Notes: generated from the letters alone by a model not told the origin. 64,000 bases of DNA from Chrysomallon squamiferum (GCA_012295275.1 CM022671.1:21824001-21888000); one strand, 5' to 3'; shown: positions 12,658 through 64,000, counted from the first letter of the stretch. Translations and numbers: made by a program.

Positions 12658-12704
12658 TGAATAAAAGGAAGAACGTGGCACACTGTTTGATTGCATATCT
12701 GCAG
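12658..12704 (+). promoter_or_regulatory. Putative core promoter and short non-coding exon 1 of gene A
   Basis: TGAATAAAAGG TATA-like box followed about 45 nt later by CAG|GTAAGT donor (12705); same arrangement precedes every intact paralogue. Confidence 0.55.
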
Positions 12705-13615
12705 GTAAGTTGAACATGAATTTCCATTTATATATATTTTACGTATATATATATAAAATATACTATGTACATAAGTACATAAATACAGACAGACAAACAG
12801 AGAGAAGCACGCATGCATATATATACATACATACGTATTTATATTTATTATTTATATTTTTCTCTTTGTCTTTATCTCTCTCTCTCTCTCTTTCTCTTTC
12901 TGATCCTTATTTGAATAGAAATAAGTTTTTATTATTCAGTAGAAGGACGTACAACCCAAAGAGGTATAAAGGCAATTTATTTAAATTTAGTCAGTTAAAA
13001 ATGTTGTAATAGATCAGTGTCGTCACATTAAAGTAGAACTTGGCGCCAGTATTAATTTCCATTCCTTAACATATTAATATATTAAAAAAGTTTTATAAAC
13101 GTCATACTGACGATGAGTTTCGCTTATAAAGGTGTCAAAATTAACATTATTTGAATTTAGCACTTTAACAGAAAAAGAGTTTCAAGAATTATCATAGAAA
13201 AGTGAAACAAAAGCGTAAATGATATTTTTACATCGTTTTATAAACCCAGTCACTTAGCCTTTTGCATACTCTAACTATTTTAGACCTTTTTTGTTTGATT
13301 GTTTTGATTTTTTTTGTCGATCAAATATGTAACGATCTCTTCTGAAATGCTTTGTCCCAATAACTAACAACATCTTCATAGCTTTAATGTATAAGATTGT
13401 TCGTTACAGTAAAATTTAATCTCTTGGCATATGTATTCATTCATATGTTAACCGACCACAAATAGAATTATTTATTTGAAGTGTCATATTTCTCTCACAC
13501 ATTTAAATATTTATATTTTAAATTACTTGCCATAGAAAATCCTTTATTTAAACGAGAGTAATGTGATGGAGGAAGCGTATTAGCGGTCAAGTACGTAATT
13601 TTGTTTTGTACAGAA

Positions 13616-14352
13616 ATGAAGCTAGCACTGTGTCTTCTGTCACTTTTGTTGATGGCGAATATCCTCTTCGACTGGGTTGGCGCATATCCCAACTTACAAA
13701 TTATATCGGGAATAACAAAATGCAAACGAGGCAATACCATGATGATCGCATACTACCATAAGAGAACTATGAGAGTAAGGGGTGCCTGGTGTGGTGATAA
13801 GGTGAGTTTCAAAAAGAGCCAGTTTCAAAATTCATTAGACATAATTCAAAGTCATAATTAGCCCGAATTTCTCCATTTCCTCCTAAAAAAACAATATTTG
13901 ATCGACAATTCTGTCAATAAAGTATTGTATAATTTTGTTGCTAGCTGTCTGCCTGTTTGTCTATACGTATCTATTTTTCTTTCTACCTGCTCTCACCACT
14001 GCCCTTTTCCCTTGCATCTTTCGTACATATGTCTCTCAGTATATGTATGTGTGTGTGTGTGTGTTTGTGTGTGTCTGTGTTTTTGGTGTGTGAGTGTGTG
14101 AATGATTGTCTGTATTTCTATTTCTCTTTATCAGCTGATATATTTAATCGTTTACAGGTTTTGAAATGCCGCGTTAAAAACGTATTCTTCCATAGACAGA
14201 GAAGGTATATACGCGTACACATCTGTTCCGTCAAAGGTCGCACTGGAACGCTTACCATTTCGTATAAGAACGGCACAGTGTGTCACAAAAGTTACGACTC
14301 TGTTACTTACGTCAACTGCAATCGAAAGTTAAGTGTCTGCGGACATAAGTAA
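13616..14352 (+). CDS. Secreted Cys-framework family gene A, 126 aa, strongly cationic; exons 13616-13801, 14158-14352
   Basis: tacag|aaATG; MKLALCLLSLLLMANILFDWVGA-YPNLQIISGITKCKRGNTMMIAYYHKRTMRVRGAWCGDK|VLKCRVKNVFFHRQRRYIRVHICSVKGRTGTLTISYKNGTVCHKSYDSVTYVNCNRKLSVCGHK*; donor GTGAGT, phase 0; 7 Cys in the mature part. Confidence 0.85.
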
Positions 14353-15121
14353 TGAAACTGAATAAATTATCTATGGACGCAGTAGAGAACAGTTCAAAAC
14401 GTGAAGCATTTTATTTTGTTTGTGACATATATATTGGTATTAATTCAAAATACAACGACAGTGACTACGACGATGATGATGATTGTTGTTGTTGTTATTA
14501 TTATTATTATTAGTAGTAGTAGTAGTAGTAGTAGTAGTAGTAGTAGTAATAGTAGTAGTAGTGTTGGTACAGCAGTACCAAAACACTCCTCCAGAAAGAT
14601 CACGTCCCCATATATCTAAACCGTTGTTATGAGTTGTATCATTATGTTAAACAGTAAGGATATTAATAATTCCTTTCTTAACGTTCTTTTATCTCATATG
14701 AACTATTTAAATTGATGTAATGTATGAATGTGTGTGTTTGTGCGCGCATGAGTATCTATGTGTGTGTGTGTGTGTGTGTGTGTGTGTGTGTGTTTGTGCG
14801 CGCGTGAGTATCGTGACTATGTGTGTTTATATTTATATATACGTGTTCGTGGCCGTAACTAGACTCTTTTTGAAATGAGGCAAAAACACTTAATCAGCGA
14901 TAAACCTGTCTGATGTCTGATATATTTAACGTCATTTATGTCTTTCGTCTCAACGATGTCAATAGACTTCAAGCGGTAACCTTAGACAAAAACGAATTCA
15001 TTTAGTGGATATCGTTTCTAACAGAACAGAGATTTTTATTTTATATAATAAAAAAATTTGTACAAAAAAAAAAAAATTAACAAAAAACAAGATAGCATTT
15101 GCTTCATTTGCCTCATTGTAG

Positions 15122-61570: not shown

Positions 61571-61663
61571 ATGAAGAGCCTAGCACTGTATCTTGTGGTG
61601 CTGTTGTCGCTGGGGTTTGCCTTAAATCATGGACCACGCCCCGTTTACGAGAAAAAAAAATAA
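61571..61663 (+). pseudogene. F-type signal-peptide exon relic
   Basis: MKSLALYLVVLLSLGFALNHGPRPVYEKKK*; lacks the first Cys and a donor. Confidence 0.6.
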
Positions 61664-63893
61664 CAATCTATTTTGATCAAAAAGGAGCTGGATAAAAAGA
61701 GTATGGAATAATCGTTTTGTGAGTACAACAACAACTAATACTATCACTACAATTATGACTACTACTCCTACCAGTACATTTACTATACTACAATTACAAT
61801 TAAGCGAGACATGGAGAGAGTGGAAAACGTTTTGGTATTTTAACCTCTAATTCAAATAGAAATCGGAAAACAAACCCTTATAGTGGTTTAAATTTAACTT
61901 TCACTATTGAGGAGAAATTACAAATGTTTGAAATATCCTGATTTGTTATTTTCTTTTAATAGTTAGTGTTTAAAGACACACACCCAAACCGGCCCAACAA
62001 ACCCCGGGCTGGGGCAGGTTGGGTCACCCTTAGGGGGAAGCTAGGAGTATTGCATAATGCAGAATAAAAATAATCTCAAATATGCACAAAACACGTGATT
62101 TATTTCAAAAAAATTTGCGATGCAATTAACAACCATTTAAATTTAAGAAAATAAAAAATAAACCTCAGCTTAAAATCGCACAATGAAGGCAAAACCAAAA
62201 ATGGCTCTAAATGGACTGGAAAACAGTTTCATTTTTATAAAAATGCAAAATACGTGCGGAAATAAATTTAAAACATAATGACCCTACGAAGACTGGATAC
62301 ACTCTGAGGTAACTTGAGACAATATATTATACACAAGATAAGTACAAAACCAGAATGCACAAGCATAGCCAGAGCTACAACCTGTAAGGCATACGTTGAT
62401 GATTTCCATCCCATTTTCGGCCTATGTAGTTGGAAATGTCTTCTGTTTTGTTCAGCAATCCAACAGATCAATTTTCTTAGCGTCTTAGGATCCAATAGGA
62501 AGCCAATACGCGACGTTCTTAGTGTATTTTCAGTCAGTTTTTCTTCCTCTGCCTCTGTGGAACATGAAAAACAGCTGTTTTTCTCAGCGATGTTCCTCTA
62601 CAGCTTATTTTAAAATATCTGTTGACACCTGTCTTCGATTACTCTTCTTTTGGTATGTTCTCACCGTCTGTTTTTAAATAAATATATATATATATATGTA
62701 TGTATACATTTTAGTGTCCAGTTGACCATTTCACTGAGAAACTGAATTACTAAAACTGTACAAGAAAATGAATTTATAATAACACATATATTTAATGGTG
62801 TGCTCGAGGGCAGGTTGGGGGTGTGGTCCAACCTACCCCGGGAAGACCTGCCCCGGGTAGTGAGCTTTCGTTTTACTTTGAATTGATCGTTTCTGACCAG
62901 CAATTGCCAAGTCATTCAGATGTATTTAATATTTCTAAGTTTTTTTCACAATTCCATATAACAAAGATTACCTTTGAAAGCTAATAATCTTTAGCTATGT
63001 CTAAGAAGTTGTATGTTGCAAAAACAATCTTTTCAATGTCAAATCAGAACGTATTTGTTCGAGATCTTCATAACTCGTGCGTATCAATTAGCACTATAAC
63101 ATCGTGCTAGATCTAGCTTATCTTAAAACTATAAGTGGACAAAATATAAATCAAAATATATATTTTTTTTTGGGGGGGGAGAATTCCATATCAACTTTAA
63201 TTAACTTTGAAAGTAAATAATCTTTAGCTATGTGTAAGAAGTTGAATGACAAATTAGAAAGCATCTCTTGGACAACTTGAAAACTCGTGCCTATCAAATA
63301 GTACTATAACGTCAGTGCTAGATCCAGGTAAACTAAAACTATGAGAGAGAGAGAGAGAGAGAGAGAGAGAGAGAGAGAGAGAGAGAGAGAGAGAGAGAGA
63401 GAGAGAGAGAGAGAGAGAGAGAGAGTTTTTAAAAAACATTAAAAGAAGGCATAGGAAAGGATATGTATGCACGTTGCATAAACAATTACTGATCCTTGGT
63501 GTTAGAGAATAACAGGATTAAGTTTACCAATAAGCGATACACTGATACAGAAAATAAAATAAATCACGACAAAACATCTAGTGAACATTTTCAAAAAAAA
63601 AAAAAAAACACCAAAACCCCCCAAAACAAGAAAATAAATATAATAAAATTAAATTAAAATTAAAAAAAAATTCCATAAATACAACAAAACAAAAAATTAA
63701 AAAATTAAAAATTAGAAATCAGAACAAACTACACAATATATATGTAGTAATATTTTGAATAACACGAAAGACAACGAAGAACGGAAATTAATAATTCCAG
63801 AACAACCAAGTAAGACAAACTTATTATTATTATTATTTTTTTTTTTTTTAAATCAAGGTAATCTGTTAAAAAGCAAAATTTGGTTTTGTGCAG

Positions 63894-63992
63894 ATATAGG
63901 AGAGCCTAGCAGTTTGTCTTGTGGTGATACTGTAGCTGGGGTAGGCAGTAAGATATCAAGGTAAAAATTGTAATGTCACGGAACCATGTCTA
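63894..63992 (+). pseudogene. F-type exon relic (ATG>ATA)
   Basis: gtgcag|atataggagagcctagcagtttgtcttgtgg...cacggaaccatgtct, homologous to 36902 and 57836. Confidence 0.55.
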
Positions 63993-64000
63993 ATAATACT

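Follow-up and report, generated by a model that had tools for sequence, protein, structure and literature searches.

A birth-and-death array of predicted secreted six-cysteine proteins with a putative immunoglobulin-like fold in Chrysomallon squamiferum

Molluscs are without antibodies, and much of their extracellular machinery for defence and recognition is still unnamed. Among the variable systems that have been described, the conotoxin superfamilies are multigene families that combine a conserved signal and invariant cysteines with a hypervariable mature part. The Sp185/333 (SpTransformer) genes of sea urchins are small two-exon genes, consisting of a leader and a mature exon, that stand in tight tandem arrays with dinucleotide microsatellites beside the genes; their proteins are glycine- and histidine-rich and are not known to have a cysteine framework. 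A conserved signal, invariant cysteines and a hypervariable mature part are also reported for the multigene family MgCRP-I of Mytilus (PMC4558851). Here, we analysed 64,000 nucleotides of Chrysomallon squamiferum DNA (GCA_012295275.1 CM022671.1:21824001-21888000; hereafter, the window), in which positions 12,658 to 64,000 hold a tandem array of eight intact and approximately eleven decayed genes of a family whose proteins are basic, have six cysteines and weigh about 12 kDa. We lean towards reading these proteins, which are predicted to be secreted and to adopt an immunoglobulin (Ig)-like sandwich, as a likely extracellular binding or defence set.

The array shares with MgCRP-I and the conotoxins the mode of evolution: a conserved signal, invariant cysteines, a hypervariable mature part and multiple genes. 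The molecules themselves differ, in that MgCRP-I, as reported, and the conotoxins are short peptides with a pre-pro-mature layout, whereas the array proteins have a mature part of 104-109 residues, no apparent propeptide and a predicted beta-sandwich. None of them showed the pre-pro-mature arrangement in which the mature peptide is just a few tens of residues long. With Sp185/333, the array has in common the small two-exon genes, the leader exon followed by a mature exon, the tight tandem arrangement and the neighbouring dinucleotide microsatellites, whose counterparts here are (TC)n runs. The sequences of the two systems are unrelated, and the leader exon of the array genes also encodes 40-44 mature residues.

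With a G+C content of approximately 31%, abundant microsatellites and introns bounded by GT..AG, the window is recognisably eukaryotic DNA. Copies were mapped by tblastn within the window, first with both coding exons of the gene at 26031 and then with all paralogs as queries, and the two maps agree; paralogous exons were recovered at expectation (E) values from 1e-38 to 1e-44, and relics more weakly. A script joining exons by coordinate found all eight candidate genes intact. Each lies on the plus strand and comprises two coding exons separated by a phase-0 intron of 356-926 nucleotides, with GTATGT, GTAAGT, GTGAGT or GTGTGT as donor and TTACAG or TAACAG as acceptor; every coding sequence has one stop, which is terminal, and encodes 123-129 residues. 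Six cysteines lie past residue 20 in seven of the genes, and seven in the first. The main-type genes are g2 (18833-19659; exons 18833-19021 and 19459-19659; 129 residues), its recent duplicate g4 (26031-27081; exons 26031-26219 and 26881-27081; 129 residues), g5 (33680-34426; exons 33680-33868 and 34238-34426; 125 residues), g7 (39291-40606; exons 39291-39479 and 40406-40606; 129 residues; intron 926 nucleotides), g10, of which g5 is the fast-diverging partner (50497-51331; exons 50497-50688 and 51143-51331; 126 residues), g12 (54012-54943; exons 54012-54191 and 54752-54943; 123 residues) and g13 (59545-60482; exons 59545-59724 and 60291-60482; 123 residues). The divergent gene g1 (13616-14352; exon 1 13616-13801, exon 2 14158-14352 including the stop) encodes 126 residues with seven cysteines after the signal and has a phase-0 intron of 356 nucleotides bounded by GTGAGT..TTACAG. 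An earlier note, made from the sequence alone, had described eight intact genes of one architecture and about ten relics; tblastn recovered all of these copies, exon joining bore out the intact genes, and the relic fragments found by tblastn number 11-12.

Transcription was assessed by comparing the stretch 18570-25800 with RNA and DNA contigs. The junction between exons 1 and 2 of g2 was present with 0 mismatches in two RNA contigs, which come from different runs of the same study, joining 18845-19020 to 19458-19565 (X8 record 17) and 18834-19020 to 19458-19729 (X9 record 24). RNA depth fell to 0 across 19054-19295, a bin that lies entirely within the intron, and likewise across the bins spanning 19780 to 20263. 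Two further runs supplied DNA contigs (X1 record 1 and X3 record 9) that cross the g2 donor into the intron, so the part skipped by the RNA contigs is present in the DNA and absent from the RNA. The earlier note had made its reading depend on spliced transcripts, and for g2 the predicted junction was thus seen in RNA. At the 3′ end, the g2 transcript reaches approximately 19778, which fits an AATAAA at +101 after the stop; this signal lies 59-111 nucleotides past the stop in seven of the eight genes, and the first one in g1 is at +9.

Upstream, an acceptor (..cag|AC or ..cag|AT before the ATG; ..ctgcag|AC) stands immediately before each exon 1, in intact genes and relics alike. Furthermore, a conserved block with CCAAT-like and TATA-like boxes and a 13-nucleotide core motif lies 212-530 nucleotides ahead of each of the seven main-type genes and has no other match in the window; its 7 matches compare with 0.91 expected, and none of 100 shuffles reached that number. 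The motif of g2 is at 18303-18315 on the plus strand, where it marks a candidate promoter or non-coding 5′ exon, and those of g4, g5, g7, g10, g12 and g13 are at 25553, 33389, 38877, 50285, 53769 and 59236, respectively. Between this block and the acceptor, the sequence is T-rich or microsatellite and poorly conserved. The block and the acceptor would fit the short non-coding first exon that had been proposed from the sequence. In g1, the end of exon 1 encodes the additional, seventh cysteine, and the upstream motif of the other seven genes is missing; this gene may represent an older, separately regulated subfamily or a gene heading to decay.

The encoded proteins share a fixed frame. Exon 1 has invariant positions T35, C37, T42, M43 and W59 (alignments A1/A2), and exon 2 has C3, C22, G29, G38, C41, Y45, D46, T49, C53 and C60, in agreement with the residue frame that the earlier note had sketched. 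A classic signal-like segment opens each protein, conserved sequence begins directly after it, and no propeptide is apparent in the alignments; secretion, which the earlier note had also proposed, is accordingly what the N-terminal hydrophobic segment would predict. The mature proteins have masses of approximately 12.2-12.8 kDa and isoelectric points of 8.8-10.3 and are aromatic-rich. Five of the eight end in Gly-Lys (codons 19651-19656, 27073-27078, 34418-34423, 40598-40603 and 51323-51328), and a stop two codons earlier is common to g12, g13 and an inverted relic at 45066. A terminal Gly or Gly-Lys is the usual C-terminal amidation signal of granule-stored peptides. These ends, like the Gly in which five named bivalve relatives described below terminate, would fit C-terminal amidation. 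An origin of the two exons by internal duplication was rejected, with an hhalign probability of 0.4% between exon 1 and exon 2.

Sequence searches placed the family outside the described ones. In Pfam, no family match above noise was obtained for the single exons, for the database proteins P0003, P0005 and P0006, or for P0007-P0009. A sequence search of the PDB returned 0 matches for the exon-2 profile and, for the full profile, only an integrase at E 0.11. The ESM Atlas gave no usable feature match for exon 2 or P0005, and the matches of its own low-confidence P0005 model (pLDDT, predicted local distance difference test, 0.51) all fell below the bar of the tool. Word-indexed protein searches with single-exon queries found no homologue among longer or near-length proteins.

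A profile built from the eight exon-2 translations and scored against 1.84 billion representative proteins identified six at E up to 0.001, three of them bacterial repeat proteins. The latter, P0001 and P0002 (MBG_2 repeats) and P0004 (TIG/Big_2), matched a strand motif of 20-30 residues repeatedly and are without the cysteine framework; we rejected them as not homologous. The others are P0003 (131 residues, E 6.3e-5), an uncharacterised protein of Mercenaria mercenaria (LOC123525465, XP_045160461.2); P0005 (128 residues, E 1.4e-4), a hypothetical protein of Dreissena polymorpha (DPMN_085660, KAH3698141.1); and P0006 (85 residues, E 6.2e-4), from a Logan contig. In all three, the match falls in the C-terminal half, where exon 2 would lie. 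A further profile search added three more Dreissena paralogs (LOC127862099, LOC127844255 and DPMN_085711), and P0005 shares one 51-Mb sequence with two other Dreissena paralogs. Aligned by hhalign, exon 2 matched the five named bivalve proteins with a probability of 98.1% (E 7.5e-14, 62 columns); exon 1 aligned weakly with them, co-linear over the signal and the first mature residues (25 columns, probability 38.5%). Of the five C-terminal cysteine columns in an alignment of 14 rows, three (C65, C84 and C117) never vary, and the other two (C105 and C124) hold cysteine in at least 90% of the rows.

The bivalve proteins are similar in length to those of the window (128-138 against 123-129 residues) and have an N-terminal signal-like segment, the five C-terminal cysteines, a G.F.V.Y ... 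(Y/F)D motif and, judging by the weak exon-1 alignment, probably the same mature start. The differences are that most of them carry three cysteines near the N terminus against one in the window's proteins, that their full-length total is 8-9 cysteines compared with 6 for the mature proteins of the window, and that they end in Gly rather than Gly-Lys. We read the N-terminal cysteine number as a probable subfamily difference. An exon-2 tree sets the bivalve proteins, together with P0006, apart in a separate clade (96/95). With bivalve proteins as its closest discernible kin, the family would by itself point to a mollusc, or at least a lophotrochozoan, as its source. The description of the family as lineage-specific in the earlier note therefore does not hold, since homologues of the same size occur in M. 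mercenaria, D. polymorpha and one Logan contig; its statement that no known family could be assigned stands, with no Pfam match for the exons or the full-length bivalve relatives and no PDB sequence match. A literature search by the relatives' accessions and locus tags found no paper, and a topical search did not find the family in titles or abstract openings among the matches listed. Together, these results suggest that the family appears undescribed in the libraries and literature searched, its kind, fast-evolving tandem secreted proteins with a cysteine framework, being well known.

Two of the bivalve relatives were modelled as stand-ins for the window's spliced proteins. The alignments combined the relatives with the window's exon-2 rows; exon-1 rows were excluded because MAFFT misplaced exon-1 fragments among the full-length relatives. 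The AlphaFold models reached a pLDDT of 77.3 and a predicted template modelling (TM) score of 0.66 for P0005, and 77.2 and 0.63 for P0003. Both are all-beta, with 7-9 strands after an N-terminal helix that matches the signal-like segment. Foldseek found no match in the PDB at E <=0.001; the best were Ig-like domains (E 4.5e-3, TM score below 0.55). In the wide VIA search, the best matches were of the Ig constant type (Z 8.4, root-mean-square deviation 3.4 over 92 residues; Z 8.1, root-mean-square deviation 3.1 over 86 residues), and nearly all of the 50 structural matches listed per model were Ig-like domains. The predicted fold of the two relatives aligns to Ig CH2, T-cell receptor constant and major histocompatibility complex class II membrane-proximal domains. 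These differ from it in sequence, at an identity of 3-14%, and in having a single canonical disulfide, whereas the proteins of this family would carry three or four. The Pfam Ig models (I-set, V-set, C1-set, C2-set and ig) gave no match to the exons or to P0003, P0005 and P0006 (E up to 10) or to P0007-P0009 (E up to 0.01). We infer a predicted Ig-like beta-sandwich and make no claim of membership in the Ig superfamily. The ML domain (NPC2, MD-2 and Der p 2), a secreted Ig-like sandwich of approximately 130 residues with six cysteines, was considered as a lead; no match to Pfam PF02221 was obtained at E up to 10, and no ML-domain structure was among the 50 matches listed in either wide structural search.

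The divergence of g5 from g10 provides the evidence for change concentrated in the mature protein. Their introns are identical at 355 of 369 positions (96%) and their signal-coding parts at 55 of 60, whereas the mature part of exon 1 matches at 92 of 129 and exon 2 at 142 of 186. The mature-coding parts are thus 71-76% identical, with most changes non-synonymous. In blocks of 50 columns, most of the intron is 95-100% identical; the exceptions are two gap-rich blocks, at 74% and 85%, and the two that border on the exons, at 85% and 82%. Flanking blocks that are free of gaps and nearest the gene are 92-100% identical. Accordingly, the two genes differ at 81 of the 315 mature-coding nucleotides and at 14 of the 369 in the intron (p = 4e-17), and mature-coding DNA has diverged approximately sevenfold more than the intron that separates the coding exons. 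Of the 105 codons, 49 are the same, 6 carry a single synonymous and 31 a single non-synonymous change, and 19 have two or three changes. By the Nei-Gojobori method, the non-synonymous rate (dN) is 0.356 and the synonymous rate (dS) 0.177, giving a dN/dS of 2.0; Fisher tests gave p = 0.027 for non-synonymous against synonymous change and 1.6e-18 for non-synonymous change against the intron. The 50 amino-acid differences extend across both exons and spare the last 25 or so residues. Polarised against g2, g4, g7 and g12, 18 look derived in g5 and 12 in g10, and for 18 those four paralogs have neither state. The pattern points to diversifying selection on the mature protein in both genes as the probable cause of the exon-restricted divergence. 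With non-coding DNA nearly unchanged and half of the mature residues different, the pair constitutes an unusually clean natural experiment.

Several results weigh against a rapidly diversifying set of Ig-like binding proteins. A Z score of about 8 is the level that the tool calls common for models without a clear match, values under 8 possibly reflecting no more than a widespread arrangement, and the modelled relatives are only 18-39% identical to the window's exon 2. RNA support comes from g2 alone among the eight genes, within the stretch compared. Moreover, dN/dS exceeds 1 in 11 of 27 defined pairs, all of which involve g5 or g10, so that acceleration is confined to their lineage. For g2 and g4, it is 0.25 (5 non-synonymous and 5 synonymous changes); the mature coding parts of g12 and g13 are identical; and the remaining pairs lie between 0.56 and 0.91, dS being saturated in every pair with g1. 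Finally, synonymous divergence between g5 and g10 (Nei-Gojobori, 10 of approximately 66 sites) is higher than that of the intron (p = 0.001), so selection alone may not explain everything.

This synonymous excess in the mature part is also what would be expected if short gene-conversion tracts from divergent paralogs, or homogenisation of the non-coding DNA, had produced the exon-restricted divergence, and 30 of the 50 differing residues have one state that is found in other paralogs of the window. At 18 of the 50 positions, however, g2, g4, g7 and g12 have neither of the two residues, and changes are found throughout the two exons and in each of the two lineages. Among clean four-fold sites, where the first two bases agree, only 1 of 20 differs, matching the level of the intron. 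Conversion would also need at least three separate tracts, each ending at an exon border. We therefore regard it as unlikely and retain diversifying selection as the preferred explanation.

The array is a birth-and-death family with a diversifying mature peptide, and the segmental duplications and decayed copies bear out the mode of evolution that the earlier note had named. Self-comparison identified duplicated blocks at 17069-20351 and 24317-27603 (91-96% identical), at 28887-34581 and 46064-51485 (80-90%) and at 53231-56388 and 58703-61896 (91.5%), together with an inverted partial copy at 44369-45472. The duplications are nested, and intact genes and relics stand at corresponding places in the units. 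The exon-2 tree pairs g1 with the copy at 21444 (support 99/97) and g5 with g10 (87/77), leaving g2, g4, g7, g12, g13 and two relics unresolved.

About eleven relic loci, with 11-12 fragments, lie between the intact genes, all within segmental duplications; they comprise three exon-2-only copies, two short exon-2 remnants and seven decayed exon-1 copies of two divergent types, A and B. All are on the plus strand apart from the inverted copy. The g1-type exon 2 at 21444-21632 has an open frame but no exon 1 that could be found, the place expected for one upstream being taken up by a high-copy repeat (depth at 20748-21231). Neither X8 nor X9 gave RNA cover over this copy, a result that is uninformative either way. 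A relic exon 2 at 41880-42041 has its 5′ end cut by a (GA)n run (41799-41874), and the inverted exon 2 at 45066-45263 (minus strand) is without exon 1 because its duplicated block begins inside the intron. A short exon-2 remnant with an in-frame stop is at 42801-42842, and a type B relic gene at 36902-37263 joins an exon 1 with in-frame stops (36902-36955) to an exon-2 remnant (37204-37263). Type A exon-1 relics are at 36029-36151 (decayed, without an ATG), 51828-51906 (with stops), 56053-56139 (with a stop) and 61571-61657 (with a stop after 30 codons), and further type B exon-1 relics are at 57841-57891 (without an ATG and with stops) and 63900-63950. Since this last relic touches the end of the window, the array may extend beyond it.

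Repeats accompany the duplicated units. Minisatellite arrays of a 37-bp unit lie between genes at 31702-32257, 37527-38481, 41158-41504, 42976-43671, 48853-49041 and 52603-52923 and belong to the duplicated units, that at 41158-41504 being oppositely oriented. At 20506-21231 and 21958-24377, summed DNA contig depth reaches thousands to tens of thousands where the gene itself has tens to hundreds, marking these segments as high-copy repeats, which are probably transposable elements. The (TC)n runs (34548-34639, 40770-40847, 42201-42316, 55119-55208 and 60657-60786) lie 122-176 nucleotides past the stop of g5, g7, g12, g13 and the relic exon 2 at 41880, just past the polyadenylation signal and often followed by (AG)n; they may favour unequal exchange. 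Upstream of the array, an open frame of 95 codons at 5441-5728 (plus strand) has sub-threshold scores to I-set (E 0.012) and V-set (E 0.049) and a D.G.Y.C-type motif and may be an exon of a neighbouring Ig-domain gene.

As for function, a small disulfide-braced sandwich with a fixed cysteine frame and a fast-changing surface would suit a binding module for fast-changing partners, and the role we propose would be to recognise targets that change quickly, microbes among them. The occurrence of the family in filter-feeding bivalves speaks against a purely venomous role, and the proteins have a basic charge; we therefore favour a part in extracellular defence or in recognising microbes, tentatively and as at best about evenly balanced.

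Reproductive proteins also evolve quickly, by duplication and diversifying selection, and the fast divergence of the mature peptide beside conserved signal and non-coding DNA, together with the presence of the family in broadcast-spawning bivalves, could be expected of proteins that serve in gamete recognition, in the egg coat or as pheromones. Numerous relics and a basic charge are, however, equally typical of defence proteins, and no feature found here ties the genes to gonads, which leaves a reproductive role improbable. Venom or salivary toxins, or other secretions against prey or predators, would share the conserved signal and hypervariable mature part of toxin superfamilies, and the Gly-Lys and Gly ends of the array proteins and their bivalve relatives recall the amidation signal. 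Homologues nevertheless occur in filter-feeding bivalves without a venom apparatus, and the mature protein is large for the class and shows no propeptide in alignments, making this role quite improbable. A structural or matrix function in shell, egg capsules, byssus or mucus, where small, basic, aromatic-rich, cysteine-bearing secreted proteins are common, is very improbable, given a sequence without low-complexity or repeat character and a non-synonymous excess between recent duplicates that would be unexpected of matrix proteins.

A more novel proposal is that the array belongs to an undescribed, mollusc-wide family of secreted proteins with an Ig-like fold that would serve as a germline-encoded variable recognition repertoire, whose duplicates are driven apart almost only in the mature-coding exons, about sevenfold faster than in the intron that separates them. 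We give this proposal a small chance; if true, an invertebrate would have its own parallel to variable immune receptors, with a very small gene of two exons as its basis. Should the proteins instead be ordinary matrix or storage proteins, they would add one more lineage-expanded secreted family. The family is without a Pfam model or a sequence-matched solved structure, yet it is present in at least two bivalves and in the window's organism. If its members bind microbes or gametes, the array would offer a compact system in which a repertoire is built by duplication, selection and decay.

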